From Saccharofermentanales bacterium (GTDB lineage: Bacteria; Bacillota; Clostridia; Saccharofermentanales; UBA5734): DNA of 63,596 nt. The DNA lies in NCBI GenBank assembly GCA_038326615.1, contig JBBQKF010000006.1, positions 1-63,596 on the forward strand. The letters are read 5' to 3'. Within the stretch, counting starts at the first letter, position 1. The number at the start of each line of letters is the position of its first letter. Under the pieces are notes generated by a model, which saw only the letters and a list, made by a program, of their open reading frames with translations, ran no database searches and had not been told where the DNA came from. Position numbers and translations under genes: made by a program. This document shows, in pieces, positions 5,731 through 61,594 of this stretch.

Positions 5731-7233
5731 CTATTGTATTTCCAAGGCAAGTTTTAGAATTTTTTCCTGCGTTGCTTCACTTCTGTCAAAACACCCTGCA
5801 ATATGGCCTTCTTGCATAACATAAATCCTGTCACACATTCCGAGAAGTTCTGGGAGTTCACTTGAAATCATTATGATTGTCAGCCCTTTTTGGGTGAGTT
5901 CACTAATCATTTTATGAATTTCAGCTTTAGCATTAACGTCAACACCACGAGTCGGTTCATCAAGGATCAATAGCTTTGGATTAAGCGCCAAGGCTTTTGC
6001 AACCGATACTTTTTGTTGATTTCCTCCTGAAAGGTTTGTCACAAGGAATCCTGTATCAGGTGCCTTAATGCCTATCTCCTCAATATACTTTTGGGCTACA
6101 ACGTTTTCTTTAGATTCGTCTAACATTCCAAATTTTGCAAATCGTGAAAGCTGTGGCATGGTTATATTGTTTTTAACACTCATATCAATTACAAGTCCAT
6201 ATTTACCGCGATCTTCAGAGACATAAACAATCCCGTTTTCCATCGCGTCATTGTAATGCTTAATGTTAATTTTCTTGCCTTCAAAAATCAAATCACCACT
6301 TGTTTTCTTAATTAGTCCACATAAAGTCTGTGCAAGTTCTGTTCTGCCAGATCCTGCAAGCCCAGCAAATCCAAGTATTTCACCATGTTTGACATTGAAC
6401 TCAACGTTGTTTAGTAATCCTGATACATATAAGTTTTCGGTTTTCAAAAGCTCTCCACCGATTTCGGTTTTAGTTTTTGGATAATAACTCTCCATGCTTC
6501 TTCCAACCATATCTTTAACTAATGAATCTTTATTCGTTTCGCTAACAATTTTTGTTGAAATATAATTCCCGTCGCGTATTACTGTAACTCGGTCACAAAC
6601 CTGAAATATTTCCTCAAGCCGATGACTGATATATACGATTCCAACTCCCTCTTCTTTCAGTTTTCGTATTATTGTGAATAATGCATCAACTTCACGTTGA
6701 GTAAGGGACGCTGTTGGTTCATCAAGAATTAGAATTTTTGCATCAAATGTGAGAGCTTTAGCTATTTCAATCATTTGTTTTTGCGCCATTCCAAGGGTTT
6801 TGATTTTAACATTAACATCGATTGATGAATTTAATCTCTCAAATATTTTCTTGGCATCTTCTGCCATTTTTTTATAGTCAATTACTGGAATGATACCAAA
6901 TGTTTTTTTTTGTTCTTCATGTCCAAGAAATATGTTCTCGAGAACTGTCATCTCTTCAAAAAGACTTGTTTCCTGATAAATTATAGATACACCTTTCCGA
7001 TACGATTCAAGTGGACTATTAAAGTCCTGCTTCTCGCCATTCAGAAATATTTCACCTTCATTTTGCTTATACACACCAGAAACAACTTTCATCAAAGTGG
7101 ATTTCCCTGCACCGTTTTCTCCACAAATTGCATGAATTTCACCGGGCATTAAATCAAAATTAATTCCACTAAGTGCAAGTACACCAGGAAATGTTTTTAC
7201 TATATTTTTTAGCTCTAGGACTGGTTGGTTCAT
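5731..7233 (-). CDS. Monosaccharide ABC transporter ATP-binding protein (double NBD)
   Basis: GENGAGKST, LDEPT and LSGGNQQK motifs; 500 aa RbsA/MglA type. Confidence 0.93.
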   Translation of the reverse strand: MNQPVLELKNIVKTFPGVLALSGINFDLMPGEIHAICGENGAGKSTLMKVVSGVYKQNEGEIFLNGEKQDFNSPLESYRKGVSIIYQETSLFEEMTVLENIFLGHEEQKKTFGIIPVIDYKKMAEDAKKIFERLNSSIDVNVKIKTLGMAQKQMIEIAKALTFDAKILILDEPTASLTQREVDALFTIIRKLKEEGVGIVYISHRLEEIFQVCDRVTVIRDGNYISTKIVSETNKDSLVKDMVGRSMESYYPKTKTEIGGELLKTENLYVSGLLNNVEFNVKHGEILGFAGLAGSGRTELAQTLCGLIKKTSGDLIFEGKKINIKHYNDAMENGIVYVSEDRGKYGLVIDMSVKNNITMPQLSRFAKFGMLDESKENVVAQKYIEEIGIKAPDTGFLVTNLSGGNQQKVSVAKALALNPKLLILDEPTRGVDVNAKAEIHKMISELTQKGLTIIMISSELPELLGMCDRIYVMQEGHIAGCFDRSEATQEKILKLALEIQ

Positions 7234-8321
7234 GGTTGCCTCCTGATTTTGCCGTACTTTTTTGCTGCATCAAAAAATGCATAAACATTTTCGACTGGTG
7301 TGTCTGGCTGCATATTATGAGCTGGTGCGATTATATATCCTTTTCCACCATTAGTTGCTGCAATACATCTTTTTACTTCTTCTTCAACATCGGCAGTAGT
7401 GCCATGTGGTAGAACATCCTGTACATCGATTGCCCCAAAGAAAATAAGCTTATCTGCATATTGGTTGTAGAGGAGAGACAGTTCCATGCCTTCCGCCATT
7501 GGCTGCAGCGGATTTAAAACATCTAATCCTATCTCAATAAGATCTGGTATTATTGGATTAATCGATCCACACGAATGATAAGCAATTTTGATTTCGGGGT
7601 TTTTTGCTTTAAATACATCAAACATTTTTTTCATTCTGGGCATAAAATGTTCCCGCCACATATCAGGAGATATCATCATTCCCTTTTGCGTTCCTACATC
7701 ATCGCCGGTCCAAATCATATCCACACCAAGTTCAATCATTTTTAATCCACAAAGTGTGCTATACTCAGCGATTCGGTCAAGCAATACAAAGATATAATCT
7801 TCTTCAGTTGCTAAATCCATAATGAATTTTTCCATCCCAACAAGATTCCATGCAAGCTCAAATATGCTGGCTTCCAAATCTCCGATGATTCCATATTGAT
7901 TTTTGTATTCTGAAATGTTTCTGACGGCAAATTCCCAGCGGCCAATATCAAGTGGATTCGGAAATGTATATTTATTTAAATCTTCAATTGATTCACAAAT
8001 AGATAATGGGCGAACAACTGCTTCCGAATAAAGGCCAACTGTTTTATACTCAAGACCCCATTCGTCCCTCACATTGCCATTTTGCAATTTGATTGTTGGG
8101 CTCCCTCGAGTTGCAGCTACGAGTACTGCATCATTCCCTAGTTTCAATAATATATCACGATGAGAAATCCTTGTTGCAAGAAATGAATCTTCCATTTGAA
8201 CATCACAGTGCAACTCGACTGCAAGAAGCTGTGCTAATTGTTCAGTCAGGTTTGCTACAATCGGAACCCGATCAGGACTAAGACCATTTATTGTAGCTAT
8301 AAATCTTTCTTTACTGTTCAT
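7230..8321 (-). CDS. URO-D/MtaA-CmuA superfamily protein (not HemE)
   Basis: MNSKERF...PDRVP start, DEWG, GDDVGTQ...MISP, YHSCG and APAHN motifs. Confidence 0.85.
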   Translation of the reverse strand: MNSKERFIATINGLSPDRVPIVANLTEQLAQLLAVELHCDVQMEDSFLATRISHRDILLKLGNDAVLVAATRGSPTIKLQNGNVRDEWGLEYKTVGLYSEAVVRPLSICESIEDLNKYTFPNPLDIGRWEFAVRNISEYKNQYGIIGDLEASIFELAWNLVGMEKFIMDLATEEDYIFVLLDRIAEYSTLCGLKMIELGVDMIWTGDDVGTQKGMMISPDMWREHFMPRMKKMFDVFKAKNPEIKIAYHSCGSINPIIPDLIEIGLDVLNPLQPMAEGMELSLLYNQYADKLIFFGAIDVQDVLPHGTTADVEEEVKRCIAATNGGKGYIIAPAHNMQPDTPVENVYAFFDAAKKYGKIRRQP

Positions 8322-8387
8322 ATGACCCCCATAAAACCTTAATCAAATTAAATTTCACACCACTTGTCTTGTCTTTTCTATGGCATA

Positions 8388-8451: not shown

Positions 8452-8454
8452 CAT

Positions 8455-9357
8455 TTACAAATTTCTAAACTCTGAGGGGGTCTTCCCTGTTATGTTTTTA
8501 AAAACCCGACTAAAATAGAACTGATCGGCAAAGCCTGTTTGTTCAGCAATATCAGCTATTAAAAGGTCTTTACGTTCTCTTAGCAATGCTTTTGCGCTTG
8601 AAACCTTAAGTGAAATCAAATATTCGTTGTAAGTCATATTTTTTGTTTTTTTAAATATTTTGCTTAAATAGGGCTGACTAATCGCAAATTTTTTGCAGAT
8701 AACTACAATACCATTGTCACAATCCAGATTAATTTTTAGATACTTGTCTATTTCATTGATAATTTTTTCGGCGTTAGTCAAATAATTCTCCGAATAATTA
8801 CCGTTTTTATGATTTTCGTTGTTATGGTTAATTCCATTAATAATTTCCGTATCGTTAACACCTTTAGAGCCGATAGCAATGTCTTTGACATTAACACCTT
8901 TAAAAATGTCCATATCATTCATATCGTTAATGTCTCTGATTAATGAATCGTCAAGTTTCAAAAGTTCTATTTGTTTTCGATTATCAAGCTTCAATGCGAT
9001 CTTGTCTAATAGTTTTAAAACTTTCGCTGGTTCAACTGGCTTAAGTAAATATTCTTCTGCGCCATAAATAAATGCATCGTGAACATAATCAAAATTGTCA
9101 TATCCACTTAATACAACCGATAAAACTTCAATACTGCTATCTGCAATTGTTTTCAAAAGATCAATCCCAGTTTCTCCGGGCATCTTAATATCTGTAAAAA
9201 TAACATCTAGCTTAAGATTCTCTATTTTAATTCTTGCTTGTTTTGCCGAAAACGCTTCCCCCACAATTTCAAATCGAGAATCCTTTTTTATAACTTTCTC
9301 TAGCGTATCCAAAATGGCCGGTTCATCATCAACTAATAGTATTCTATATTCAGACAT
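8455..9357 (-). CDS. YesN-type response regulator (receiver + AraC HTH)
   Basis: LLVDDE, TDIKMPG and YLLKP motifs; C-terminal GFADQFYFSRVFK...TPSEFR. Confidence 0.92.
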   Translation of the reverse strand: MSEYRILLVDDEPAILDTLEKVIKKDSRFEIVGEAFSAKQARIKIENLKLDVIFTDIKMPGETGIDLLKTIADSSIEVLSVVLSGYDNFDYVHDAFIYGAEEYLLKPVEPAKVLKLLDKIALKLDNRKQIELLKLDDSLIRDINDMNDMDIFKGVNVKDIAIGSKGVNDTEIINGINHNNENHKNGNYSENYLTNAEKIINEIDKYLKINLDCDNGIVVICKKFAISQPYLSKIFKKTKNMTYNEYLISLKVSSAKALLRERKDLLIADIAEQTGFADQFYFSRVFKNITGKTPSEFRNL

Positions 9358-9851: not shown

Positions 9852-11666
9852 CTAAATTATTATTTCTTCATCTGAATTTTTTGTTTCTTCCTTACTTGTC
9901 TCTATTTGTACTGTAATTGTCATACCAGAGACAAGATTATTTTCAATATTGTAATTGAAAGAATCGCCAAGATAAAGCTTTAGACGAAGCAGTGTGCCGA
10001 TTAATCCCATTCCACCGAATTTAATTTTACTTTTAATTTGTGAGTTTTCCAGATTTGTCTGTGATTCCGAAAGAATACTATCTATTTCCTCGAGTTTATC
10101 TTGGCTTATACCACAGCCATTGTCAGAAACTTCAATAAAAACAACACTATTAATTCTGTAAGTTTTAATACTAATAAATACTGTCTCATTCTCTATAAGA
10201 CTATATTTAATTGCATTTTCTGCTAAAGGTTGAAATGTCAATTTGGGAATTAAAACGGAATAAGTATTTTCATCAATTTCGATTGAATAATCGAGCCTTT
10301 GTCTGTATCTGCTTTTCATTAATTGCATATATGCTTTAAGATTTTCTGACTCCTCTTCAATTGACATAATCGTCGACTCATAGTCGGATGCATATCGAAG
10401 AATTTCAGATAAATTATAACATGCCTCGGCCGCCTCCTGATTGTCACCACTTTCACACATACTTGCGATACTCCCCAAAGAATTATACAAAAAATGCGGT
10501 CCGATTTCAGATTGCAGAATATTAAAAAGTGTTTTAGTTTGAATTGATTCAAGAACTGTCTGCTTTGTGAGTGACTCCGTGAGACGAGTTTTCATTTCCT
10601 TGAATGAACGATTAAGAACCTCAGTTTCATAATCTTTGCTTATATAATCAAATGGCTCTTTAAGATTGTTCAAATCAACCTTTTCCATCTTTTTTACAAA
10701 AGTCCGAATTGGTTTAGTCATTTTTCGTGTTACTATTGTTACAAACATTCCTGACAGAATAAAAAGAATTAAAACAATTACGATAAGATATAAGAGTATA
10801 ATTTTCATTGAAGAAAATAAAACTGACTTGTCGAGTATAAGGTAAGATTTATATTCTGTATAATTTGAATCTGTTACACTAATCAGTTCGTTTGATGTCT
10901 CAACCACCTTAGCACTTTCATTTTTGGTTTTATCAACTATTGATTTTATATAACTGTCTTCACTATTACGGTTTATATTAGTATAAAAAACGGAGCCATC
11001 TCGTCCAACTATAGCAAGGCTTAAATTGACCTTATTCCACTCGTTAACACAGATTTTTTCAATTACCTCGATTTTTTGTTGAACTTCAATATACCCGATA
11101 ACCTTATCTCCGTTTTTTATTGCTCGAATAAGTGAAATAACTTTCGCTTCGCTTTTCTTATCCCATGGATCTATTGTTGGTGGCAAATATATTCTTCGTC
11201 CGCTTTGAACGACAATATCAGTATACCAGCTTGATTTGAATATTTCCTTTTTAACTTGTCCTTTTGTAACATCAGTATTCCCAGTAGTAAATAAATCTCC
11301 ATATACGGTAAAAATAGAAATTCTGTGTATGTTTATTTTATTAATATAACTTTTTACTAGAATAGCTTTTATAATTGATTCATTTGCTGCCTTTTCGGTG
11401 TCTTTGCTTTTAACATCAACAATTGTGTTTAAAGCGTTGATAAGTTCAAAATTCGATGCAAGTTCAATTGAATTAACATCCATACTTTTCATTTGCATAT
11501 CAACCTGCGCCATTGTGGCTGTACCAAATTGTTCTACATTACTCTTTCCACTTGTTAATAGGATATATAAATTGTATCGGTAGAATGCTAAAGCGGACAA
11601 TATAATTATAGAAATTATAATTGCAGTATATGTAATAATTAGCTTCCCTGATAAAATTCTTTTCAT
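9852..11666 (-). CDS. YesM/LytS-type sensor histidine kinase
   Basis: Two TM segments, HAMP-like region, LQSEIGPHFLYNSL, QPLAENAIK and DNGCG motifs; start moved to ATG 11666 behind RBS AAAGGTGG. Confidence 0.9.
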   Translation of the reverse strand: MKRILSGKLIITYTAIIISIIILSALAFYRYNLYILLTSGKSNVEQFGTATMAQVDMQMKSMDVNSIELASNFELINALNTIVDVKSKDTEKAANESIIKAILVKSYINKINIHRISIFTVYGDLFTTGNTDVTKGQVKKEIFKSSWYTDIVVQSGRRIYLPPTIDPWDKKSEAKVISLIRAIKNGDKVIGYIEVQQKIEVIEKICVNEWNKVNLSLAIVGRDGSVFYTNINRNSEDSYIKSIVDKTKNESAKVVETSNELISVTDSNYTEYKSYLILDKSVLFSSMKIILLYLIVIVLILFILSGMFVTIVTRKMTKPIRTFVKKMEKVDLNNLKEPFDYISKDYETEVLNRSFKEMKTRLTESLTKQTVLESIQTKTLFNILQSEIGPHFLYNSLGSIASMCESGDNQEAAEACYNLSEILRYASDYESTIMSIEEESENLKAYMQLMKSRYRQRLDYSIEIDENTYSVLIPKLTFQPLAENAIKYSLIENETVFISIKTYRINSVVFIEVSDNGCGISQDKLEEIDSILSESQTNLENSQIKSKIKFGGMGLIGTLLRLKLYLGDSFNYNIENNLVSGMTITVQIETSKEETKNSDEEIII

Positions 11667-11802
11667 ATAATCCCACCTTTCATGCATTTCAATATTATCA
11701 CTAAAATCACAAAAGTGAAATATTATTTTAAAAGTGGAATTTTTATGATATACACTATGGCTTTTTAGTAATAAAAATCTTAGACTTAATATAATATTTA
11801 AT

Positions 11803-35377: not shown

Positions 35378-35389
35378 ACTCAATCTCCT

Positions 35390-36724: not shown

Positions 36725-37705
36725 TCAAGCTAGTCTTTTTGATTTTTTTGCAACCATCTGGATAATAACTGCAATGACCAGAACTACCCCGGTAGCAATA
36801 TCACGAAATGCTTGAGGAGCGCCAATCATAATCAATCCATTTGATAATATCCCTGTCACCACAACTCCTAAGAATGCACCAAAAACGTTGCCTTCTCCAC
36901 CAGCAAGTATCGTCCCCCCCAGTACTGCTGCAGCGATTGATTCAAGTGCGTATGAACTACCAATGCTTGGATTTGCAGTTGCAATACGGGATGCCAGCAT
37001 GATTCCGGCGAAACCTGCCAACAAGCTACTCAATGCATAGGTTTTCATGGTTACTCTTTGAATATTTATCCCTGCAATTTCAGCTGCTTTTGGATTTCCG
37101 CCTGTGCAATATAGATGTCGGCCGAACTTTGAGTATTTAAGTATAAACCCAAAGAAAATGTACATAAATATGAGAATAATGATTGGAAGAGGGAACTTTA
37201 TTGCTCCAAATGTAGTTGCACCTAGAAATTTAAATGCCGGCAGATTGACTGTTATCGGTTGTTTCGTTATAAGGATAACAACACCACCTAATATGAAACT
37301 CATTGACATTGTTGCAATAAATGGTGATACTCTGGCTTTTGTTATCAAAATACCATTTGTTAACCCAATGGTTAAAGCTACAAGCAACCCTGCTGGAAGT
37401 CCTATCCAATAGGGAAGGCCCAGCATCGAAGGAGAACATATAGCTCCCACTACCACTCCAGAAAGTGCTGCCACTCCACCAACCGATAGATCAAATCCGC
37501 CATTAAGAATACATAGTGTCTGTGCTATAGCAATGATGCCAAGAGTTGCTATTTCTCTGCCAACAGGCAAAAAATTATCAAGTTTTAAGAAATATGGCGT
37601 CAAGTTTGAAAATATCAGAATTTCAATGCCAATCAAAATGACAAGCAACAACCTGTTCATAATTGAATAATTTAATTTCAAAAAAATCCTTTTTTTATTA
37701 TTCAT
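36725..37705 (-). CDS. Monosaccharide ABC transporter permease
   Basis: GGFDLSVG, GGNPKAAEIAGI and AAAVLGGT motifs. Confidence 0.9.
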   Translation of the reverse strand: MNNKKRIFLKLNYSIMNRLLLVILIGIEILIFSNLTPYFLKLDNFLPVGREIATLGIIAIAQTLCILNGGFDLSVGGVAALSGVVVGAICSPSMLGLPYWIGLPAGLLVALTIGLTNGILITKARVSPFIATMSMSFILGGVVILITKQPITVNLPAFKFLGATTFGAIKFPLPIIILIFMYIFFGFILKYSKFGRHLYCTGGNPKAAEIAGINIQRVTMKTYALSSLLAGFAGIMLASRIATANPSIGSSYALESIAAAVLGGTILAGGEGNVFGAFLGVVVTGILSNGLIMIGAPQAFRDIATGVVLVIAVIIQMVAKKSKRLA

Positions 37706-39222: not shown

Positions 39223-39288
39223 TTTGTTCCTCAATTCAAAATCAGAGTGTGATAACCAGAAAATCTGGTCATCACACACTTCGTTTCC

Positions 39289-40308
39289 TTATTTTTTGAT
39301 CAGTTCAGCCCAGTTTGCCAATGTTGCAACTTTGCCGTTTACATGTGTGACTAGCGGCATTGCAGTTCCGTTCTTAATTTTATTGTATAGTGTCTGCATC
39401 GCGATTTCACCTTCGCCATATGGGTTCAAAACAACTGTCATATAGCTGTCGTTTCCTTTTTCGAATTCCTGAACAGCCATCGAATACCCACCAAGTCCAC
39501 AAGCCAAAATGTTCTTAAGTGGAATTTTGCCTTGTTCTTCAAGCGCTTTTAGGAATGCGACAGCTGAGTCATCATTGACTGCACCACATATCCAATGAGT
39601 AACCTCAGGATGTGCTTGTATTGTTGCTTGTGCAGCAGCCAATGAGTCTTCCAGCATACATTCCGAAGTTTCCACGTAGATAAAATTACTATCTTTTAAA
39701 GGAGTTTTTGCCATTAAGGCTTCTTTATAACCATCTAACCTTGGCCTTAAAACAGAAATATCAGGAGCATCAATTTGCATTACAGCAACAACATTACCCG
39801 CTGCAAAGAAATTTCTTTCATTTGCATATTTAGCGAGCATTTCGCCGCCCAAAACTCCTACATCTTTAGTAGGCATTCCGACATGTGCAACAGGTTTTTT
39901 GTTTTCATCTACGATATTGTCATCAAGTGTTATTAGTTCGACTCCCTTTTCTCTGCATTTGATTGCAAGAGCCGGTCCATTTCCTTGATTAGTGATGCAG
40001 ATGGCTAATCCATCAATATCCTGAGCCAGAGCGTTGTCGATAGCAGCATCACAAGCCTCATCTTTTAAGTTAGCATCGATGGAAAAATATTCAACTCCAA
40101 GTTCCTTTGCTTTAGCTTTCAATCCTTCATCTTCAGAAACAAACCATGGATTCGTCAGCATCTTACTGATGTATGCAATTTTTATCTTGTCTTTTGCACC
40201 ATTTGATTCAGTTGAAGCTGATTCTTTTGATGTTCCCGCTCCATTATTACATGAAGCTACTGAAAGGAGCATCAATGCGGTCATTACCATTGCCAAAACT
40301 TTTTTCAT
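39289..40308 (-). CDS. Monosaccharide-binding lipoprotein (AraF-like)
   Basis: Lipobox VASC; IAYISKMLTNPWF and LITLDD motifs; likely start ATG 40308. Confidence 0.82.
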   Translation of the reverse strand: MKKVLAMVMTALMLLSVASCNNGAGTSKESASTESNGAKDKIKIAYISKMLTNPWFVSEDEGLKAKAKELGVEYFSIDANLKDEACDAAIDNALAQDIDGLAICITNQGNGPALAIKCREKGVELITLDDNIVDENKKPVAHVGMPTKDVGVLGGEMLAKYANERNFFAAGNVVAVMQIDAPDISVLRPRLDGYKEALMAKTPLKDSNFIYVETSECMLEDSLAAAQATIQAHPEVTHWICGAVNDDSAVAFLKALEEQGKIPLKNILACGLGGYSMAVQEFEKGNDSYMTVVLNPYGEGEIAMQTLYNKIKNGTAMPLVTHVNGKVATLANWAELIKK

Positions 40309-40363
40309 TTCTATTTCCTCCATTTTTATTTTTTGTCAGAGATTATTCTCTAACTTTAACAAC

Positions 40364-40527: not shown

Positions 40528-41538
40528 CTAATTCTCCATGAATATTTTGTAATTATCACATGTAATTATTTGTCCGCCTAGAACCGTCACTGTCTTAAAT
40601 CTGGTTCCATTAACAAGGTTTTCATATATCATATCAACTCCTTTTTGTCCTTCTACCTCTGGTTGTGCTGCAATAGTAATATAATTTTTATTGCCTTTCA
40701 AAAATTCGCTTTTTACTTCGTCTCTTGAGGAAAGACCCAATCCACAGGCAATAATATTTTTGTCCAAAACACCGTTTTCCCTTAAAATCCATAGCGGTGC
40801 AATAGCACTTTCGTCATTAACTCCTGTAATAATCCAATGGGTTATTTTTGTATATTTCTTTAGAGCTTCTTTCACTTTTGGTAGGTTTTCCTTTATCATC
40901 CCTGTCGAGCTTTCGATAATAATGAAATCCTTTTCCTTTAAAGGGGTTTGAGCCTTGAGAGCTTCCCTATATCCGACCAGTCGTTCTCCGATGACAGAAA
41001 GAGTAGGAACATCTATTTGTATAACACCTACAATGTTTCCTTCATCAAAAAACCCCTTTTCGTTTGCGAGTTTCGCTAGCGCTGTCCCACCCAAAATGCA
41101 TAATTCCGTTGTCGCCATTCCTATATGTGGGAGTTGAATCCCGTTTTTATCTTTCATCGAATCATCGATTGTTACAAGATTTACACTTGCCTTCACACAT
41201 TTCTCTGCAATGACTGGTCCTAATTCCTGATTGGTCGTGCAGATCAATATTCCATCCGCTCCCCAATTTATTGCATCATCAACAAACTGAATACACTTTT
41301 CGTCATTATACTCGGCATCCAAAGGCAGATACTCAATATCATATTTTTTGCAACTGTTCTCAATGCCTTTAGAAACCTGTTGAAACCAAGAATTTGAAAG
41401 TTGCTTGCATATATAGGCAATCTTGAACTTTTCATTTTTACTATTCTTTTGGTCATTAAGCGAAATGAAAATACTGATAAGTATAGCGGAAACGAGAATA
41501 ATTGCAATACCCGTTGGCAATAATGTTTTCTTTTTCAT
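40528..41538 (-). CDS. Membrane-anchored sugar-binding protein, paralog of 39289..40308 (probable sensor accessory)
   Basis: N-terminal TM; IAYICKQLSNSWF, KTPLK-like and THWII blocks shared with the neighbour. Confidence 0.8.
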   Translation of the reverse strand: MKKKTLLPTGIAIILVSAILISIFISLNDQKNSKNEKFKIAYICKQLSNSWFQQVSKGIENSCKKYDIEYLPLDAEYNDEKCIQFVDDAINWGADGILICTTNQELGPVIAEKCVKASVNLVTIDDSMKDKNGIQLPHIGMATTELCILGGTALAKLANEKGFFDEGNIVGVIQIDVPTLSVIGERLVGYREALKAQTPLKEKDFIIIESSTGMIKENLPKVKEALKKYTKITHWIITGVNDESAIAPLWILRENGVLDKNIIACGLGLSSRDEVKSEFLKGNKNYITIAAQPEVEGQKGVDMIYENLVNGTRFKTVTVLGGQIITCDNYKIFMEN

Positions 41539-41640: not shown

Positions 41641-42909
41641 TTATTTATTGATAATGGCAAAATCCTCTAAATCCATTTTGCCACTAATCAGCTTATGATA
41701 ATTATCCAAAATCACACTTCTGTTTTTTGTGTAAGAATTTAAAACAGGCTGTGTTTTCCCATTTTCTGACATAAAAAACAGATAGTTTGAATGCGCTGGA
41801 AAATGCACATCTCCAAAACTAGTATAGAACACCATGTTTAGGGATGAAAATAACCGTTCTCCTTGTTCCAGTCGGATTTTTTGCCCAAAACTACTTACAA
41901 AAAATCGAACAAATTTCTTTGAAATCTCCGCATTATTGCTTTTCGCTACTGCAATTTGAGGAACTTCAATTACAGTTGAAGAAAAATTCGAACCAATCAT
42001 CGGCATTGGTACAACATCCCACTCAAATCCTATTGGTTTAGATAATTCATATATATAATCAATTGGCCCTACAACCATAGGAACGGCTTCAGATCGAAAC
42101 AAACTCAATGAATCCGATCCCCACTGAAGTTCGTTCGAGTACAAAACAACTCCTGACTTTATCAACGCTGTCAAGACTGACAGTGCTTCGATTCCTTTTT
42201 CATCAAGAATTAGTTTGTTGTTTTCATTGAATCCCATTATTTTACCGCCATTACCAATGATAAAACTATAAAAACTTTGCCATTCAGGTGATATTGCGAA
42301 AACAGGTTGTTGCGTCTTTGAATAAATAAATCTGCAATATAAATCGAAATTTCTCAAATTCCATGCCTTATTATCCATGAATTCTTGAGGAGTCTGTTGT
42401 CCTTTCCAGTTCAATTTGACTTTATTGTAATAAATACAATATGGCCTTACACCTGTTGGTAAAGCATATTGCGCGCCAAAAACTTTTCCTTCCTGCAAAG
42501 CAACTTCAATAAACGTGTCGCCCTCCGACTGAATCTCTAAAAGGATGTCATCTAGTGGCTCCAATTTCTTTTTCAATTGTTGAAGGCTTTGTTGGTCAGC
42601 ATAAAAAATGTCAAATGGTTCACCAGCAGAATATTGGGAAACAACAATTGTTTGAAGTGATTCTAATGATGAGAAAGAATAGATATCTACTTCACAATTA
42701 TTCTCACGTTCAAAATATTTAACAGTTTCACTAATAATTCTTCTTTGTTCTGCGTCTCCATATACTGCAAATGTTATCGTTTTTTTTGATTCTTGAACCT
42801 TAATAACCTCTTCTTTTCCTAATAGACTAATCGAAATCAGGGAAATGCCTGAAATAAGTAGTACTGCCATGATAATATATAGAAAAGTGTATTTTCTATC
42901 TGTTCTCAT
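41641..42909 (-). CDS. Extracellular solute-binding protein (family 1)
   Basis: N-terminal TM, QYALP...IYYNK and WDVVPMP motifs; start overlaps the response-regulator stop. Confidence 0.75.
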   Translation of the reverse strand: MRTDRKYTFLYIIMAVLLISGISLISISLLGKEEVIKVQESKKTITFAVYGDAEQRRIISETVKYFERENNCEVDIYSFSSLESLQTIVVSQYSAGEPFDIFYADQQSLQQLKKKLEPLDDILLEIQSEGDTFIEVALQEGKVFGAQYALPTGVRPYCIYYNKVKLNWKGQQTPQEFMDNKAWNLRNFDLYCRFIYSKTQQPVFAISPEWQSFYSFIIGNGGKIMGFNENNKLILDEKGIEALSVLTALIKSGVVLYSNELQWGSDSLSLFRSEAVPMVVGPIDYIYELSKPIGFEWDVVPMPMIGSNFSSTVIEVPQIAVAKSNNAEISKKFVRFFVSSFGQKIRLEQGERLFSSLNMVFYTSFGDVHFPAHSNYLFFMSENGKTQPVLNSYTKNRSVILDNYHKLISGKMDLEDFAIINK

Positions 42910-44492
42910 CTACTTTTACTCCTGTATTCGCTAGGAGTTACTCCAACATTCTTTTTGAAGAGTTCGCTGAAATACCTCACACTAATAAATCCAACTTTTT
43001 CGGAAACTTCATAGTTTTTGAATTCAGGATTATTGGTCAACAATTCCTTTGCTTTACTCATTCGGATATTTGTCAAATAAGAAATGAAATTTTCTCCAAT
43101 TATTCTCTTAAATATTTTGCTGAAATACCATTTACTCATAAAGACCTGGGACGCTATACTATCCAAATTAATATCCTTATTGTAATTATCATTAATAATT
43201 TTTTTTGCTATTTCCATGGCCTGGAAGTATCTACTGCTTATTCTTTTGGTCATAACATTATCAATCAATACTGCAATTGCATAAAAGCTATCGGATATAT
43301 CGTTTAAGGTTTTTGCATGAGTTATTGATTCTAAAGGAATTATAAAGGAATCAAACAAGTCTTCGATTTTTCCACACGAAGAACAATAAGTTGTTACGCC
43401 TAGAACTATTGCCTCAAGCGCAGTATTTCTAGACATATTTTCGTCTCTGGATTCAACTATTTTTGATTGAATTATCCTTGCCTCATTAAGTATGTCTTCA
43501 CCATTTTGGATAGCGTTGATAAAATCTTTTATTGTTATTTTCTCATCACTAGTCGAATTGCAATGGTTTATGGCATTATTAAATATTACTTTGCTGTCAC
43601 CAACAAACACTCTTTGCTCTAAACATTCATCAACCTCTTTTCTTGCCCATCTCAGTTTGTCAATATTTTCGTATATGTCACTAACACCAACACTCACAGT
43701 AAATTTTCCTTGAGTTTTAACATGAATACATAATTCTTTTAAGAATTCCTCTAATTCTTCTTTCGAATAATTCATGCATTCCACAATGGCATAGATACAT
43801 CTATCACGTATAATTGTAGTAGCAGCAATCTGCGTCTTTGCAATTAAATCATCAAATATATTCTTAGTTAAAAACATAAGAATATTTATATCCTCTTCTG
43901 TAAAGTATGTTTCAAGTTCACTGAAAGAATCAAGACTAATACCTAAAAGGCGATATGATTTTGTATTAATATCATAATACTTAGCTTTACTCTCAACGTC
44001 AGCAATTTTGATAAAAGGTCTGAACATTAATTCGTACAAAAATTTATCTTTTAATTGATCCTTTGAGTTTCTGACTATATCTCTTAACTTTTCGGTTTCG
44101 TCAGTAATTTGGATTTTGTTTCTAATTTCTTTAGCTAACTCTCGTACTGCAGACTCCAATTCATCCGGATCTGTTGGTTTTAATAAATAGTTGGAGACAC
44201 CCATTTTTATTGCTTGCTTAACAAAGTCAAATTCCTTGTACCCTGTTAATAGAATTATTTTCACACCAGAATACGTGTTCAATATGCGGTCTGAAAGTTC
44301 CAAACCATCCATTTCTGGCATCATAATATCACTTATTACAATATCAGGCGCACATATTTCGATTTGCCGAATAGCATCATTACCATTTTCAGCCAATGCT
44401 ATTACTTCACAATCCATCGATTCCCAGTCCAATGAATTTGCTATTCCATTTCTTATTATGGGTTCATCTTCAACAATCATTATTTTCAACAT
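42906..44492 (-). CDS. YesN-type response regulator (receiver + AraC HTH)
   Basis: IVEDE, SDIMMPEMDG and YLLKP motifs; C-terminal YFSELFKK...TPSEYR. Confidence 0.92.
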   Translation of the reverse strand: MLKIMIVEDEPIIRNGIANSLDWESMDCEVIALAENGNDAIRQIEICAPDIVISDIMMPEMDGLELSDRILNTYSGVKIILLTGYKEFDFVKQAIKMGVSNYLLKPTDPDELESAVRELAKEIRNKIQITDETEKLRDIVRNSKDQLKDKFLYELMFRPFIKIADVESKAKYYDINTKSYRLLGISLDSFSELETYFTEEDINILMFLTKNIFDDLIAKTQIAATTIIRDRCIYAIVECMNYSKEELEEFLKELCIHVKTQGKFTVSVGVSDIYENIDKLRWARKEVDECLEQRVFVGDSKVIFNNAINHCNSTSDEKITIKDFINAIQNGEDILNEARIIQSKIVESRDENMSRNTALEAIVLGVTTYCSSCGKIEDLFDSFIIPLESITHAKTLNDISDSFYAIAVLIDNVMTKRISSRYFQAMEIAKKIINDNYNKDINLDSIASQVFMSKWYFSKIFKRIIGENFISYLTNIRMSKAKELLTNNPEFKNYEVSEKVGFISVRYFSELFKKNVGVTPSEYRSKSR

Positions 44493-44493
44493 A

Positions 44494-46287
44494 TCATATA
44501 CCCCCATCATTAAAATCAGTTTCTAGTTTCAAAGGAACTCTAATTGTAATTATTGTTCCTTTGTCAATAATGCTTTCCAATTGTATGCCGTAAGCTTCAC
44601 CAAATAAAAGCTTGATTCTATTATGCACGTTTTTTAAACCAACACCAGTATGACCTTCAACATCTTCTTCAATATCTTCTTCCATCACTTGATTAATGCG
44701 TTCACTAGTCATTCCTATCCCATCATCTTTAATAATCAATTCCAGAGTGTTTTCTACATGCCTGGCAGAAACTTCAATTCTTCCAGATCCGGATTTGTTA
44801 TTCAACCCATGCACTAAAGCATTTTCAATTATGGGCTGTAGTGTGCTCCTGGGAATAACACAACTTATATAATCGGCTGGAACATTTGCTTCAAAATTTA
44901 ATCTCTCGCCATATCGCAGTTTCTGAATTGTTATATAATCATTAATGCCCTCTAGTTCATCGCCCAAGCGAATTACATTTTGCTTTCCAGATATACTTCT
45001 TCGGAGTAGCCGCCCAAGTGCAATTGTAATCCTACTTATTTCTTTTTGTCCTACATTTATTGCTAACCAGTTTATAGAGTCAAGTGTGTTGTATATGAAA
45101 TGAGGATTTATCTGAGCTCTTAAATATTTATATTCGGCGTCTTGAAGGATTAGTTTCTTCTTATAATCTTCTTCAATTAATATTCTTATTTTTTTAACCA
45201 TTAAATTAAAATCTTGTGCAAGCTCTCCAAATTCATCCCCTCGGCAATCATCGGCATAAACATCAAAATCCTCTTTTTTAACTTTTTCCATTTCACCCAT
45301 TAATTGTTTTATTGGCTTTACCATTGAATTGGTGTATATTCTTACAATGAACAAAATTATTGCTAGTGCAATTAAAATAATACCAAATATTATGTATCTG
45401 GTTTTATTTACAGAACTCATTATCTCTTTGTATGGTGTTGCTTGAACTATTGTCCAACTGGTATAATCTGATTTTTTTGAAATGTAATTATAATTATTTA
45501 CAATTGTGTCTAATCCATTACCATTTTTTATGGATTTATAGATTTCTTCAAAATTAGTCTCGCTTTTTGCATCTGTTGATATTATATCTCCCTTTTCATC
45601 AAATATTGCAAAATAACTTCCTGATGTTGTTTTTAAGTTTGAATATGATTTTGCAATTTGTTCCCCTCTAATACCTATAACCAATAATCCTATCTTATTC
45701 ATATATTCTACATCATAAACATCTCTTATTCCGAGTATAATGTTATCGTTTTTCATAAGTTTAACCCATTTTATCTGGCCATCAGTTTTTTTAGCATATT
45801 CTGAAATTAAATCACGCATATTCCAAAATCCGTCAACAAGCACTTCTGCTTCGGTACTTGTAGCTATTGAATACTCCTCACTATCAGTCCTAATTAAATA
45901 AAATAACTCTATACCTAATCTAGTATTTGTCATAATCTGCATTTTATTAATTACATTTTGCATGTCTAATTTTCGATCTCTTAATGTACTATTAGTATAA
46001 TCCCTCCTTAACATTTTTTGGATATCTTGATTCCATTGAAAGTTTAACATGACATTATCTAGCTCTTCTAATTCTTTTTCAATATTAACAACCGCTTGTA
46101 TCACAAATTGATTACTTGAATTTTCAAATTGCTTATTTGTTGTTTTACTCATCATCTGGCTAAAAACAAGTGCAAAAAACACCAGGGGAACTACAACTAA
46201 AATCAGGAAAAAAACTAACAATTTCTCTCCTATTGTCATTTTCAAAAAAACTCTTTTAATGAATAATTTTTTCACTTTGTTTTCCAC
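44494..46287 (-). CDS. YesM/LytS-type sensor histidine kinase
   Basis: HAMP (DEFGELAQDFN), LRAQINPHFIYNTL, LQPIIENA and DDGIG motifs. Confidence 0.92.
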   Translation of the reverse strand: MENKVKKLFIKRVFLKMTIGEKLLVFFLILVVVPLVFFALVFSQMMSKTTNKQFENSSNQFVIQAVVNIEKELEELDNVMLNFQWNQDIQKMLRRDYTNSTLRDRKLDMQNVINKMQIMTNTRLGIELFYLIRTDSEEYSIATSTEAEVLVDGFWNMRDLISEYAKKTDGQIKWVKLMKNDNIILGIRDVYDVEYMNKIGLLVIGIRGEQIAKSYSNLKTTSGSYFAIFDEKGDIISTDAKSETNFEEIYKSIKNGNGLDTIVNNYNYISKKSDYTSWTIVQATPYKEIMSSVNKTRYIIFGIILIALAIILFIVRIYTNSMVKPIKQLMGEMEKVKKEDFDVYADDCRGDEFGELAQDFNLMVKKIRILIEEDYKKKLILQDAEYKYLRAQINPHFIYNTLDSINWLAINVGQKEISRITIALGRLLRRSISGKQNVIRLGDELEGINDYITIQKLRYGERLNFEANVPADYISCVIPRSTLQPIIENALVHGLNNKSGSGRIEVSARHVENTLELIIKDDGIGMTSERINQVMEEDIEEDVEGHTGVGLKNVHNRIKLLFGEAYGIQLESIIDKGTIITIRVPLKLETDFNDGGI

Positions 46288-46317: not shown

Positions 46318-47226
46318 TTATGAAACTACAAATTCAAAAACTTCTTTATATCGAAAATCTTTTTTTGTAGTTTGATTGCCATTTATCATCTCTGCAAATT
46401 GAGTCAAGGCTTCCAAATTAGTCTTTGCATCCTCAATAATAAGAGAAACCATTAAATCGTCAGTCTTAGGATAATTTCCATTTATGCTTGATCTTGCCAA
46501 AACTTTATTTTTAGAATATGATAGCATTTGAAAATTAGTATCACTGAAAAAAACACATATTCCATCAAATTTCGTAAAATCATCTTCTCCGCTTACAAGT
46601 GTTATTTTGCCATCCATTAAAACAATATGTCTGCCACTTATATAAGCCTCTGGAACGATTTCTCTTAATCCTTCGATTAGTCCTTGCTCAATCATCTTCC
46701 ATTCATATTCAAGAGAATATAGACCTATTTTGGGAGAACTAATTCCTTTTTTTATAAATATATCTCCCATTTTTTTACCAATCAGATATCCTACATATGT
46801 GTAATTAATTGAGACCGAGATGTCATTTTGGTAATAATCTCCACCAAATTCGATGACAGTCACATCAGAATTATTGATATTTTTCAAATAACTATCAATT
46901 TCATAATTATAGGGCAAAGAGACAACTATCCCTGATGTTTTTGATAAGTCAATCAATTCGCTGATTTTTGAATAATCAGTATCCACTAAATCAACAATTT
47001 CAACTGATATGCTATACGTACTTATAATACTTCTTATAGTTTCAAGGTCTGGCTGCATAAGTATCGGGTTTTTCGAATCATAAATAACTGAAATGCGCAT
47101 GTTTTTATTGTTTTCTAGTTTAATGTCCGGAACTTGTAAAGACGGCTCTAATTTACATCCGAAAAAAGCTAGTGATATTACTAATGTAGCAAGCAGGCAG
47201 AAGCATGGTTTTTTCAAAAACAGCAC
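46318..47226 (-). CDS. Hypothetical lipoprotein, possibly a degenerate periplasmic-binding fold
   Basis: Signal peptide ending FFGC; SVSINYTYVGYLIG resembles sugar-binding proteins; first gene of the two-component operon. Confidence 0.55.
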   Translation of the reverse strand: MLFLKKPCFCLLATLVISLAFFGCKLEPSLQVPDIKLENNKNMRISVIYDSKNPILMQPDLETIRSIISTYSISVEIVDLVDTDYSKISELIDLSKTSGIVVSLPYNYEIDSYLKNINNSDVTVIEFGGDYYQNDISVSINYTYVGYLIGKKMGDIFIKKGISSPKIGLYSLEYEWKMIEQGLIEGLREIVPEAYISGRHIVLMDGKITLVSGEDDFTKFDGICVFFSDTNFQMLSYSKNKVLARSSINGNYPKTDDLMVSLIIEDAKTNLEALTQFAEMINGNQTTKKDFRYKEVFEFVVS

Positions 47227-59420: not shown

Positions 59421-60335
59421 TCAATTCTTCTTATTTCTGAATTCAGAAGGAGTCGTTCCCGTAAGCTTTTTGAAAGTTAAATTGAAATGGCTAAGGTTAT
59501 GAAATCCACATCCCAATGCTATTTCTGTAATGCCACTATTTGTTGTTAATAATTTTTCTTTAACAAGTGAAATCTTTCTAGAGATTATATAATCAGAAAA
59601 ATTGCTTCCCATGGCATCCTTAAAAAGAACACTAAAGTGCTGCGGAGTCACATGTAATATGTCCGCATATGATTTTGAATCAATTCGTTCGATAACCTTT
59701 TTTGACTCGCTTCGTTTTATTTCATTAGCAAACGCATACGGCAATGAAATATTTCTCTCTATTTTCATAATTACAGGCTGCATCCGGAGCAATAGTTGCC
59801 TTTGCCCCTGATTGTTATTATCGGATTTGAAGTGACGGTAAAGCAAAGTAAGAAGTTCAAGAAGCTTTGCTTTAATCATTAACTGAAAGCCCGTTAACTT
59901 TTCACCATACTCCTTATCAATTTCAAGTACAAGCTTATTTACATCGCTAAAGTACGGATTGTTTTTTGATATTTTATTGCTAAAACCAATGCCGCGATCA
60001 ATAAATGCTTTCATATAGTTATAATCCAAAAGGTCCTTTGCACCAGACCAGATAAGCGATGGATTAAAAGTTATAATTAGTTGGGTTAATCCACCTGCAT
60101 CTGCTTGCATCCTATGAGGCTCGACATTATTGATAACCACCATTTCGCCTTTTTCAATTGGATATTCCCGGTCCTCTATGTAATAAGTACCAGATCCACT
60201 TTTTGCGAATGAAAGCTCAAAGCAATCGTGCCAGTGAAACACCTCACCCATTGTGTAGAGTGGTTCATGGATAGATTCATAAATAGAAAAAGGGAAGTCA
60301 TCCGGCAATTTTATTATTGCATGTTCAATAATCAT
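59421..60335 (-). CDS. AraC family regulator with cupin sensor domain
   Basis: FHWHDCFEL and EPH motifs; C-terminal ITEIALGCGFHNLSHFN...TPSEFR. Confidence 0.92.
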   Translation of the reverse strand: MIIEHAIIKLPDDFPFSIYESIHEPLYTMGEVFHWHDCFELSFAKSGSGTYYIEDREYPIEKGEMVVINNVEPHRMQADAGGLTQLIITFNPSLIWSGAKDLLDYNYMKAFIDRGIGFSNKISKNNPYFSDVNKLVLEIDKEYGEKLTGFQLMIKAKLLELLTLLYRHFKSDNNNQGQRQLLLRMQPVIMKIERNISLPYAFANEIKRSESKKVIERIDSKSYADILHVTPQHFSVLFKDAMGSNFSDYIISRKISLVKEKLLTTNSGITEIALGCGFHNLSHFNLTFKKLTGTTPSEFRNKKN

Positions 60336-60520
60336 TTGCTAAATTTACTCCCTTCTGAATTTAAATAAACTTATTTTTTAAAACTTATTCAAATTAATTT
60401 GGTGTTAAAATATGAAACTGGCTCTTTTGTTCCTTACAGTTAATTTGTTTTGAATTTTCATTAATAACTATTATTGCAAACTGTACTAGCACAATAGTAA
60501 TATAAACATTTATTATTGCC

Positions 60521-61594
60521 TCACATCAAGTTTGTTACGGTTTCAATTAATTTTTCTGCATCTTGTTGTGTAGGAGCGGATGTAGAGAAAACAAGCCCTT
60601 GCGGTGACAATTCTTTGAAATTATTAATAATTTCTTCGTTTGTCCAGTCATAAAGCCATAGTCCTTTGCCAGCTTTTTGGATTTTCTTAAGTAAATCCAT
60701 CCACTCAATCGATCTTGGTTGACCGTCCCCTGGCACCCACTGGATTACATCAATTTCTTTAATTGCTAAAATATCATCCAGATGTCCAAGCGCATCTTTG
60801 CCATCATAATGATAAACGCAATGGTCAAGAAATGAAGCTTCTTCTGCTATTGCAGGAATAACAAATTCTCTGGCTTGTGAAGGACTAATCATACAGGAAA
60901 AATCACACTGAATAACTGCAAATTTGCCAGATGGGGCATAAGTAGGAGCCCATCCCATAGAACCTGTTTTTGCCATATCGCCTGCTGTATATGCCATTTC
61001 AAAAACATCGTTATAAGTTTTTCTTACTTCATTTAAGACCCTGTGAACATCTTCGGGGCAATCCATTAGATCAAAGCAAAGATCTTGAGGTCCGCGTAAT
61101 GCGCTCAAAGCGTCCATGTTGCTATGGAGATCAAGCATTCCTATAACAAAATTGCTGTTTGCAAACTTGGTGCCATACTCCATGAACTTTTTCATTTTAG
61201 TATAATATGAGTCTTTGCATTTATCAAGTTTAACTTCGAAATTGCTCCAGTCATCAACGATACTGTGAACCCATGTGGTATCATAATCATCTTTTGCATT
61301 AATTTTCGCTCCAAGGAAAGCTGCATATTGATCAGGGCCAAGCGTCAAATTTACATAAGGAATAGCTTCTCCACCATAAAATGTTGTATCGACTGATTTC
61401 TGAAAAGATTCAAAAAACGGATCGTAATTCTCAGAAAGGCAAACTTGTGCTGCTATCCTGTCTGTTTGCATATGCCAAAAAGGAATTGTATCTTTTTTTG
61501 GGGAGGTCACACATATAAGCGGACGGTCGATTACTTCTTTTTGCCAAAAAGCGGCCCAATAATTTTTCTTACTATCAAAATCCTGGATATTCAT
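60521..61594 (-). CDS. Divergent URO-D superfamily protein (often labelled trimethylamine corrinoid protein 2-like)
   Basis: DRP, LGPD, DALSALRG, QCDFSCMISP, YHYDG and IQWVPG motifs. Confidence 0.7.
   Translation of the reverse strand: MNIQDFDSKKNYWAAFWQKEVIDRPLICVTSPKKDTIPFWHMQTDRIAAQVCLSENYDPFFESFQKSVDTTFYGGEAIPYVNLTLGPDQYAAFLGAKINAKDDYDTTWVHSIVDDWSNFEVKLDKCKDSYYTKMKKFMEYGTKFANSNFVIGMLDLHSNMDALSALRGPQDLCFDLMDCPEDVHRVLNEVRKTYNDVFEMAYTAGDMAKTGSMGWAPTYAPSGKFAVIQCDFSCMISPSQAREFVIPAIAEEASFLDHCVYHYDGKDALGHLDDILAIKEIDVIQWVPGDGQPRSIEWMDLLKKIQKAGKGLWLYDWTNEEIINNFKELSPQGLVFSTSAPTQQDAEKLIETVTNLM

Follow-up and report, generated by a model that had tools for sequence, protein, structure and literature searches.

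Uroporphyrinogen decarboxylase-fold genes in sugar-importer loci of a Saccharofermentanales bacterium: candidate methyltransferases of a corrinoid-dependent system with a shared hub

The Saccharofermentanales bacterium represented by assembly GCA_038326615.1 (here genome G000; 3.45 Mb in 237 contigs, 96.7% complete) carries five genes for proteins of the uroporphyrinogen decarboxylase (URO-D) fold on one contig, JBBQKF010000006.1 (C6). The contig was analyzed over its whole length of 63,596 nt and is referred to below as the window. The genes lie at positions 7230, 33255, 34331, 35390 and 60521, all on the reverse strand, and fall into three loci (A–C). A preliminary description of the window had placed all five beside sugar importers and/or AraC-type regulators. 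A Pfam scan of 51 open reading frames (ORFs) bore this out; four of the genes match the URO-D family PF01208, and the fifth belongs with them by predicted fold. We consider here whether their products could be the substrate-side methyltransferases of a corrinoid-dependent demethylase for imported methylated sugars.

All genes described in the three loci are on the reverse strand. Locus A is a tight operon made up of a CUT2-type ATP-binding cassette (ABC) importer and a URO-D gene. The importer comprises a substrate-binding protein (2260..3354; PF13407, 128.9 bits), two permeases (3534..4538 and 4665..5690; PF02653, 133 and 123.1 bits) and a double ATPase (5731..7233; PF00005 in two stretches, 200.6 bits), whose start overlaps the stop of the URO-D gene (paralog 1, 7230..8321; 363 aa, PF01208 at 125.3 bits) by four bases. 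A response regulator with an AraC-type helix-turn-helix (HTH) domain (8455..9357; PF00072, PF00165, PF12833) and a PF06580-type sensor histidine kinase (9852..11687; PF06580, PF02518) complete the locus. A promoter and terminator scan of locus A gave counts not above those of shuffled sequence (39 versus 47.2 and 5 versus 4.7, respectively).

Three URO-D genes stand together in locus B, separated by 6–72 bases from each other or from a permease–ATPase–binding protein set. They are paralog 2 (33255..34307; 350 aa, 75.5 bits), paralog 3 (34331..35383; 350 aa with a TTG start, 92.0 bits) and paralog 4 (35390..36652; 420 aa with insertions in the N-terminal half, 50.4 bits over residues 222–415). 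The importer consists of a CUT2 permease (36725..37705; PF02653, 136.8 bits), a double ATPase (37726..39279; PF00005, 184 bits) and a substrate-binding protein (39289..40323; PF13407). Beyond it lie a second PF13407 binding protein (40528..41538; 68.3 bits), possibly a sensor partner for the kinase of this locus, and an SBP_bac_8 binding protein (41641..42909; PF13416). These are followed by a response regulator with an AraC-type HTH domain (42906..44510; PF00072, PF12833), the sensor histidine kinase (44494..46287; PF06580, PF02518, PF00672) and a predicted lipoprotein of 302 aa (46318..47226) that has no Pfam match and whose N terminus resembles a lipoprotein signal ending in Cys. In locus C, an AraC-family regulator with an AraC ligand-binding domain (59421..60335; PF12833, PF02311) adjoins the fifth gene (60521..61594), which encodes 357 aa and belongs to a family that we call F5.

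The scores of paralogs 1–4 all exceed the PF01208 gathering score of 23.9 bits. With 28%, 42% and 30% identity to the 7230 protein, respectively, paralogs 2–4 appear to be old paralogs. With NCBIfam, none of the five proteins could be assigned to an equivalog or subfamily, and scores were far below the cut-offs throughout. For HemE (TIGR01464, cut-off 302.95 bits), the 7230, 33255 and 34331 proteins reached 24.2, 26.6 and 14.5 bits, and neither the 35390 protein nor the fifth matched. Against the MtaA/CmuA models (TIGR01463, cut-off 235.4 bits; NF004889, 244 bits), the best scores of paralogs 1–4 were 92.2, 48.3, 79.5 and 35.9 bits, again with no match for the fifth, and two of the genes scored 19.1 and 15.9 bits against MetE (NF002119, cut-off 258 bits). 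The paralogs thus do not map to already characterized enzymes; such a mapping would, by the terms of the preliminary description, have refuted its case.

By sequence, the closest solved relative of the 7230 protein is the coenzyme M methyltransferase MtaA (4ay7), which ranked ahead of UroD with both the single protein (E = 5e-11) and a clade profile (E = 1.1e-13). CdmB (9rui), the sole member of the aromatic O-demethylase branch that was compared, gave E = 0.089 against the profile of the clade and 0.2 against that of F5. The AlphaFold2 model of the 7230 protein (predicted local distance difference test score, pLDDT, 92.4) superposed over its full length on UroD 4wsh (VIA-align Z = 30.5, root-mean-square deviation 3.0 Å over 322 residues) and comparably on MtaA 4ay7 (Z = 28.6, 3.1 Å over 312 residues, 21% identity), with Z of only 16–19 for MetE. 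His249 and His335 are invariant in the clade. Cys251 is mostly kept, with Asp in its place in 3 of 14 paralogs, and the His-x-Cys formed with His249 aligns with the HxC motif of MtaA.

The fifth protein matched no Pfam family even at E values up to 10 and no NCBIfam model at 0.1. Its AlphaFold2 model is confident (mean pLDDT 95.8, predicted template modeling score 0.92) and matched uroporphyrinogen decarboxylase 2eja (Foldseek E = 6.5e-8, template modeling score 0.57–0.60) and MtaA 4ay7 (E = 6.5e-7, 0.61–0.65). The F5 profile is colinear with the URO-D profile over the motifs ISP..R..P and YH.[CD]G, with an hhalign E value of 5.6e-4 and a probability of just 29.8%; in F5, HxD replaces HxC. Given the model matches and the colinear profile, the URO-D-fold label is right for all five genes. 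F5 has six members in G000 and 719 homologs at E ≤ 0.001, and a precomputed Pfam domain was present in none of the 120 homologs listed. Among the loci of 4 kb around F5 homologs (L076–L088), stretches too short to be informative on context, only L082 shows an adjoining CUT2 permease and binding protein.

Corrinoid-dependent demethylation needs partner proteins, and the preliminary description had recognized none in the window. The 51 scanned ORFs indeed contain no B12-binding, pterin-binding or RACo domain, and genome-wide searches with PF02310, PF14574 and PF00809 placed no match on this contig. Candidates for all three lie on other contigs of G000. PF02310 occurs at 12 places, which include MetH and proteins of the B12-radical-SAM type, and two of which are small corrinoid proteins. 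One of these (C22:20567-21208; 213 aa, PF02310 and PF02607) adjoins a PocR-AraC regulator and is 48–64% identical to six corrinoid proteins that neighbor clade members in other genomes. The other (C27:24268-24903; 211 aa) adjoins an MtaA-like gene and shares only 23% identity with the C22 protein. There are two RACo-type activators (PF14574; 335 and 249.7 bits), of which the C20 protein (606 aa) adjoins a gene for 5-formyltetrahydrofolate cyclo-ligase and the C38 protein (643 aa) lies within a carbon monoxide dehydrogenase/acetyl-CoA synthase (CODH/ACS) cluster. Pterin-binding domains (PF00809) were found at three places, including a 285-aa methyltransferase (C8:43521-44378) followed by genes resembling methylenetetrahydrofolate reductase and electron-transfer flavoprotein. 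A homolog of DUF1638 is also present.

The C38 cluster (C38:18150-27016, L048) brings together CODH (Prismane), a fused ACS/CdhC-CdhD protein of 1174 aa, CdhD and RACo. With this cluster and the C8 methyltransferase and its neighbors, the organism looks acetogen-like, judged from gene content.

The URO-D-fold proteins far outnumber these partners. A PF01208 search of G000 found 28 places, and phmmer with the window proteins recovered 30 URO-D-like ORFs plus six F5 ORFs, giving a tally of about 36 paralogs to one matching corrinoid protein. Pfam scanning of the neighborhoods covered 33 of the 36 (all except those on contigs C143, C175 and C216). Carbohydrate genes, that is, glycoside hydrolases (GHs), sugar transporters or carbohydrate-binding proteins, occur within seven ORFs of 25 of these 33. 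The neighbors include GH2, GH4, GH29, GH31, GH32, GH36, GH42-like, GH43 and GH78 enzymes, a BNR protein, a sulfatase, proteins with carbohydrate-binding module 9 (CBM9) or F5/8-type-C domains, CUT1 and CUT2 ABC importers and an MFS_2 transporter. Three paralogs that have neither these nor an AraC regulator nearby are the three top PF01208 scorers (188.6, 179.3 and 170.6 bits), and the one on C27 follows the small corrinoid protein there. The densest paralog cluster in the genome spans 16 kb (C50:1294-16844, L010), where three URO-D and two F5 genes are interleaved with GH31, GH4, a BNR protein and several family-less ORFs.

Orthologs of the 7230 gene were sought with one genome per species, which gave 26 loci at 50–80% identity. 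They occur in Oscillospiraceae, Christensenellaceae, other Clostridia, Desulfitobacteriaceae, Peptococcaceae, Fusobacteriaceae, Atribacterota, Aerophobetes and Spirochaetaceae. CUT2 genes are present in 20 of the 26 loci and directly adjoin the ortholog in 15; four of the six loci that have none are contig ends or short contigs. Linkage to sugar transporters, on whose conservation the preliminary description had staked its proposal, is thus retained across these genomes. A corrinoid protein gene directly follows the ortholog in three loci (L026, L032 and L035). The most complete is that of Paradesulfitobacterium ferrireducens (L032), which starts with a bacterial microcompartment shell protein, acetate kinase, a DeoR regulator and an ASRT-family protein and continues with a CUT2 binding protein, ATPase and permease, a URO-D gene, the URO-D ortholog, the corrinoid protein, a pterin methyltransferase, RACo and LutC/LutB-like genes. 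The pterin methyltransferase on C8 of G000 is 52% identical to its counterpart in this operon, and the RACo of the operon is 34% identical to both G000 activators. In L035 the order is CUT2 importer, FGGY kinase, RhaA-like isomerase, URO-D ortholog, corrinoid protein, aldehyde dehydrogenase and LarA. In L026, two FGGY kinases, an AraC regulator, RhaA (756 bits), a class II aldolase, RhaM and a protein of no assigned function precede the ortholog, the corrinoid protein and an MtaA-like protein that is full-length (167.8 bits) and fused to thioredoxin.

Two further features of these loci were recorded. The ASRT-family protein (PF07100, "Anabaena sensory rhodopsin transducer") heads the CUT2/URO-D/corrinoid operons of both L032 and L035 (Desulfitobacteriaceae/Peptococcaceae). 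In a metagenome-assembled genome of the Oscillospiraceae, a 929-aa protein with CBM9 and glucuronoyl-esterase-like domains (L021:15628-18417) directly follows the URO-D–ABC operon; this esterase hints at xylan bearing 4-O-methyl-glucuronate as a source of substrate.

A further 20 loci of the clade were drawn from a sample spanning the class. Nine were Pfam-scanned (L059, L060, L062, L063, L065, L068, L069, L070 and L074), and the other 11 were classified only by phmmer with seeds from the window and the genome. In L072 the ORF filter did not recover the URO-D ORF at the match, so this locus is outside the context counts and inside the denominator of 20. An adjoining corrinoid protein was seen in three of the 20 (L062, L071 and L074). 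In L062, an ortholog of the 35390 gene (phmmer E = 2e-161) is flanked by two corrinoid proteins and DUF1638, and in L071 and L074 relatives of the 34331 gene are directly followed by the corrinoid protein, with the order DeoR, FGGY kinase, URO-D, corrinoid protein in L074. CUT2 genes occur in four of the 20, including ribose-type operons with RbsK and RbsD (L065 and L069) and one operon with GH38 (L060).

Co-occurrence was examined in genomes from the same class with a completeness of at least 90%, of which 300 were scored and one more could not be. Presence of the URO-D clade was defined by a profile of 14 of the G000 paralogs at E ≤ 1e-30, and a C22-like corrinoid protein by a best E ≤ 1e-70, a cut placed in the gap that lies above the MetH-type matches. 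Because related genomes are not independent samples, the counts are purely descriptive. The clade was found in 58 genomes from 27 families. All 58 have a C22-like corrinoid protein, as opposed to 28 of the 242 others, and RACo, present in 114 of the 300, occurs in 57 of the 58 and in 57 of the 242. The sole clade genome with no RACo match (G274) is an assembly of 310 contigs with 92% completeness; RACo is present in the other clade-bearing genomes sampled from its genus (g40). F5 was found in 35 of the 300 genomes, all of them among the 58, and 34 of the 35 have RACo. RACo was also found in 23 of the 26 genomes from which the 7230 orthologs came. Of the checks that the preliminary description had proposed, the genome-wide count gave a single matching corrinoid protein for 30 URO-D-like and six F5 ORFs, and the phylogenetic profile, in which no clade genome lacked such a protein, came out on the side of a shared corrinoid hub.

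The same imbalance recurs in many clade genomes, which have one corrinoid-protein match (E ≤ 1e-40) against tens of unverified first-look URO-D candidates, for example 92 in G061 and 78 in G200. These two belong to family f37, whose members (with G297, G225, G174, G319 and others) have 38–92 such unverified candidates and one corrinoid match each at that threshold. Families f28, f63 and f68 mostly have ten scored corrinoid-protein matches per genome, with seven in G051. In many genomes of the class (for example G229:C68, G152:C4, G323:C13 and G029:C82), a C22-like corrinoid protein and RACo lie 2–6 kb apart on one contig. This arrangement would be a compact hub cluster, the parts of which are on separate contigs in G000.

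Prediction of a complex between the 7230 protein and the corrinoid protein of C22 gave a score of 0.61, as compared with 0.00 for the best of three controls. Of 80 solved complexes, 58 attained the mark used for this score, as did 2 of 110 mismatched pairs; we stress that these counts are rough, because alignments of our own were used. At least 87% of contacts were common to the runs, and the pLDDT of the partner was at least 85. On the corrinoid side, the predicted interface comprises the cap helix (55–67) and the region of the DxHxxG loop (97–106). On the barrel side it comprises residues 163–172, 211–221 and 338–340, which flank the invariant Asp208 and His335. The model supports binding of the C22 protein by the 7230 protein.

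These observations can be combined into a scheme in which the four URO-D proteins, and probably the fifth, would be the methyltransferase I components of a multicomponent corrinoid-dependent demethylase whose substrates are imported methyl-sugars; we put the probability of this reading at roughly 0.5. Dependence of the clade on a corrinoid partner is the firmer part, and we consider it likely. In this scheme, a regulated CUT2 transporter belonging to each locus would bring in a methylated monosaccharide, with a rhamnose-type binding protein in locus A and an arabinose/galactose-type one in locus B. The methyl-sugar would be bound at the mouth of the barrel, at the site formed by His249, Cys or Asp251 and His335, with a metal expected by analogy with the zinc site of MtaA. 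The Co(I) corrinoid protein, shared and encoded on C22, would dock at the same mouth, and the barrel enzyme would move the sugar methyl group, most likely from an O-methyl ether, to its cobalt. A methyltransferase II, for which the candidates are the C8 pterin-binding protein and the C27 MtaA-like protein beside the second corrinoid protein, would hand the methyl group to tetrahydrofolate, and an ATP-dependent activator of the RACo type (C20 or C38) would re-reduce oxidized corrinoid. The freed sugar would enter ordinary catabolism and the methyl group the Wood–Ljungdahl pathway, via CODH/ACS on C38. The data themselves show the list of parts, their associations and a supported docking model, whereas the direction of transfer, the metal site, the sugars concerned and the choice of methyltransferase II and activator are those that we infer; the chemistry proposed is that of the families to which the proteins belong (PMC13222342, PMC10418091).

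The sugar part of this scheme begins with the importers. The best solved relatives of the locus A binding protein are rhamnose-binding proteins (4kvf, E = 8.4e-35; 5bq3, E = 8.9e-31), and those of the locus B binding protein at 39289..40323 are L-arabinose-binding proteins (4kzk, E = 6e-26; 1abe, E = 1.2e-22). Taken with the two RhaA genes of G000 and the operons for rhamnose and ribose use around orthologs, these likenesses suggest methylated monosaccharides that, once demethylated, pass to a standard pathway. As a genomic association, the link to sugars is well supported, and to that extent the earlier suggestion that these enzymes act on sugars stands; as chemistry, it would be an extrapolation from gene context. 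If the clade does depend on corrinoid, methylated sugars seem to us reasonably probable substrates. Methyl ethers on sugars include 4-O-methyl-glucuronate, 2-O-methyl-fucose, 2-O-methyl-xylose, 3-O-methyl-rhamnose and 6-O-methyl-galactose, and they block ordinary catabolism. S-methyl sugars such as 5-methylthioribose were also considered, since the chemistry of MtaA and MetE involves thiols; the rhamnose genes of L026 favor deoxyhexoses, at least for that subfamily.

Several observations weigh against the scheme. The window has no partner gene, and the corrinoid protein and activators lie on other contigs, so that for this organism we infer the pairing; no cobalamin riboswitch was found in the window by an Rfam search that returned a T-box, tRNA and an L10 leader alone. 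Only six of the 46 loci inspected from other genomes have a directly adjoining corrinoid protein. The context is not uniformly one of sugar use: for 5 of the 33 scanned paralogs an AraC regulator is the sole neighbor of note, no sign of sugar use is evident around two orthologs of the 35390 type (L063 and L070), and four of the 26 loci with a 7230 ortholog (L028, L029, L031 and L044) carry PTE-family and M24-family hydrolases in place of sugar catabolic genes. The gene order of this variant is LacI, an M24 creatinase/prolidase-like gene, URO-D, CUT2 importer, PTE-family gene (228–255 bits) and M24, to which L044 adds a double class II aldolase. The zinc site of MtaA is His-x-Cys plus a distal Cys, and the position aligned to that distal Cys is an invariant His in the clade. 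With this change, and with Asp for the Cys of HxC in the 3 of 14 paralogs and in all F5 proteins, the metal site would be unlike that of any characterized member. Because the clade is nearer to MtaA, an enzyme that methylates a thiol with the methyl group of a corrinoid, than to CdmB, homology leaves the direction of transfer unset. CobS (PF02654) had no match in the genome, where genes for MetH, corrinoid proteins and a class II ribonucleotide reductase are present, which suggests that the corrinoid would have to be imported. Finally, the co-occurrence could partly reflect common ancestry or lifestyle, for example that of acetogen-like Clostridia, and the passing complex score may owe something to solved methyltransferase–corrinoid protein complexes.

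Four other explanations bear on these points. The corrinoid evidence fits equally well a methyltransferase I that takes its methyl group from something other than a sugar, such as S- or N-methyl compounds or the methoxylated aromatic aglycones (flavonoids, lignans) that occur in plant glycosides; the genes would then sit in sugar loci because the same loci process the glycosides. Methyltransferase I proteins known from the UroD superfamily use methoxylated aromatics, haloalkanes and methyl-thiols as substrates (PMC13222342, PMC10418091). Several paralogs stand beside GH78 rhamnosidases, GH43 and GH2, which also deglycosylate plant glycosides, and the PTE and M24 hydrolases of the four variant operons hint at a non-sugar moiety. 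Yet the transporters in these operons are of the monosaccharide type, with binding proteins nearest to rhamnose and arabinose binders, and orthologs lie inside rhamnose and ribose catabolic operons (RhaA, RhaM, RbsK, RbsD). The clade is also remote from CdmB, the aromatic O-demethylase relative. We regard non-sugar donors as unlikely on this balance. A clade member working in the direction of MtaA, moving methyl from a methyl-corrinoid protein onto a sugar hydroxyl or thiol, either as methyltransferase II or as a sugar-methylating enzyme, would accord with the kept HxC motif, with MtaA as nearest solved relative and with everything that speaks for corrinoid dependence. We hold it to be very improbable: a separate pterin-binding methyltransferase in the L032 operon and a separate MtaA-like protein in L026 leave the clade member as the substrate-side enzyme, and the setting of importers, kinases, isomerases and hydrolases is catabolic.

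Independence from B12 was the other course that the preliminary description had offered, a family of zinc enzymes acting on sugars directly. The corrinoid protein in all 58 clade genomes and RACo in 57, the corrinoid-protein adjacency in six loci, one a complete operon, and a controlled complex prediction that favors binding all run counter to it, and we rate it as highly improbable. What speaks for such UroD/MetE-superfamily metal enzymes is the partner-free window, a putative metal site unlike that of MtaA, the large excess of paralogs over matching corrinoid proteins, and the existence of corrinoid-free members of the superfamily, UroD and MetE, which is in line with the fold matches and with PMC10418091. 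The choice of many modules sharing a corrinoid hub encoded elsewhere, also raised at that stage, is supported by the partners on other contigs, the adjacency around orthologs, the co-occurrence and the complex prediction. We give least credence to a reaction with no methyl transfer at all, for example decarboxylation or another lyase reaction on sugar acids, with the corrinoid co-occurrence as ecological coincidence. In its favor are the founding enzyme of the fold, a decarboxylase that needs no cofactor, a structural match to UroD no weaker than the one to MtaA, and a glucuronoyl esterase that follows one ortholog operon; on the other side, HemE model scores of 14–27 bits fall far below the cut-off of 303, and the corrinoid adjacency and the supported complex would be left unexplained.

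Set beside known systems, the demethylase scheme has its nearest model in the corrinoid O-demethylases (OdmB, VdmB, MtvB, MtoB and the related CdmB). Like them, it would use a UroD-superfamily barrel as the substrate-side enzyme, a corrinoid protein of about 210 aa with B12-binding and cap domains, a pterin-binding or MtaA-like methyltransferase II and RACo, all of which are present in G000 and form one operon in L032, and it would pass methyl to tetrahydrofolate and the Wood–Ljungdahl pathway. The known substrates of those enzymes are methoxylated aromatics or haloalkanes (PMC13222342), whereas the context here is one of monosaccharide importers and sugar catabolism. Further differences are that the clade is remote from CdmB (the one member compared) and nearer to MtaA, and that the modules here have no corrinoid protein of their own, with about 36 paralogs to one match. 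The "new system" of the preliminary description is accordingly too strong a term, since the architecture is that of a known multicomponent corrinoid demethylase; what would be new, by comparison with described systems, is the kind of substrate and the extent to which one hub is shared.

MtaA and the soluble coenzyme M methyltransferases (4ay7) share the fold and the aligned His-x-Cys and are the best sequence relatives. The clade differs from them in scoring 35–92 bits against family cut-offs of 235–244, in having His for Cys as third zinc ligand, in the absence of a coenzyme M context and in the opposite direction of the proposed transfer. HemE likewise has the same fold and Pfam family, but the genes studied here stand in sugar loci rather than loci of haem biosynthesis, and their scores are far under the TIGR01464 cut-off. 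In quaternary-amine demethylation by Eubacterium limosum, several methyltransferases of the MttB family work with one corrinoid protein, MtqC, and one MtqA, which resembles the sharing of corrinoid protein, methyltransferase II and activator proposed here; its methyltransferase I has the MttB fold, its substrates are amines, and it has far fewer paralogs per hub. The P450 6-O-methyl-D-galactose demethylase of marine bacteria (PMC6292453) has the role that is proposed here, removal of a catabolism-blocking methyl ether from a sugar. It is an O2-dependent monooxygenase of other fold and mechanism, and the present system would be its anaerobic counterpart.

That aerobic P450 was the only carbohydrate demethylation route to surface in the searched literature (PMC6292453). 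Among the open-access papers and preprints searched, none joins corrinoid or cobalamin methyltransferases with methylated sugars, although a report in a subscription journal could exist, and none describes URO-D genes in sugar loci. The sugar context, the separation of the clade from MtaA and CdmB (the sole aromatic member compared) and the extreme hub sharing appear to be undescribed in that literature. The branch is large: at E ≤ 1e-30 the clade profile found about 4,140 (4,140 counted) representatives of 50% identity clusters among 1.84 billion, and single genomes hold up to about 90 first-look candidates. We suggest, tentatively and with somewhat less than even confidence, that this URO-D branch and its F5 sister family serve the anaerobic removal of sugar methyl ethers from plant, algal and microbial glycans, with dozens of enzymes per hub feeding acetogenesis.

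If the scheme is true, corrinoid methyltransferases would gain a new substrate class, and polysaccharide breakdown would be tied to one-carbon metabolism, through acetogenesis and, by cross-feeding, methanogenesis. It would provide an oxygen-free answer to the P450 sugar demethylases and an uncounted one-carbon source in anoxic carbon cycling. It would also explain the tens of genes labeled "uroporphyrinogen decarboxylase family" in carbohydrate loci of many Clostridia, and it gives concrete candidates for the enzyme, binding protein and importer together with named partners (corrinoid protein, activator and methyltransferase II).

Other features of the window lie outside the three loci. A gene of the DUF1854 family stands between two genes for fused ABC exporters of 764 and 713 aa (18903-24041, forward strand). 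On the reverse strand, a complete trp operon (50226-57827) encodes TrpE, TrpG, TrpD, TrpC, TrpF, TrpB and TrpA, with a family-less ORF of 112 aa (52266-52604) between trpF and trpB, and has a T-box leader upstream (58890-59136, reverse strand; 126.5 bits). Also on the reverse strand, at 47727-49983, a 428-aa radical SAM protein with the N-terminal domain of lipoyl synthase adjoins a protein with a lipoyl ligase domain of the LplA/LipB type.

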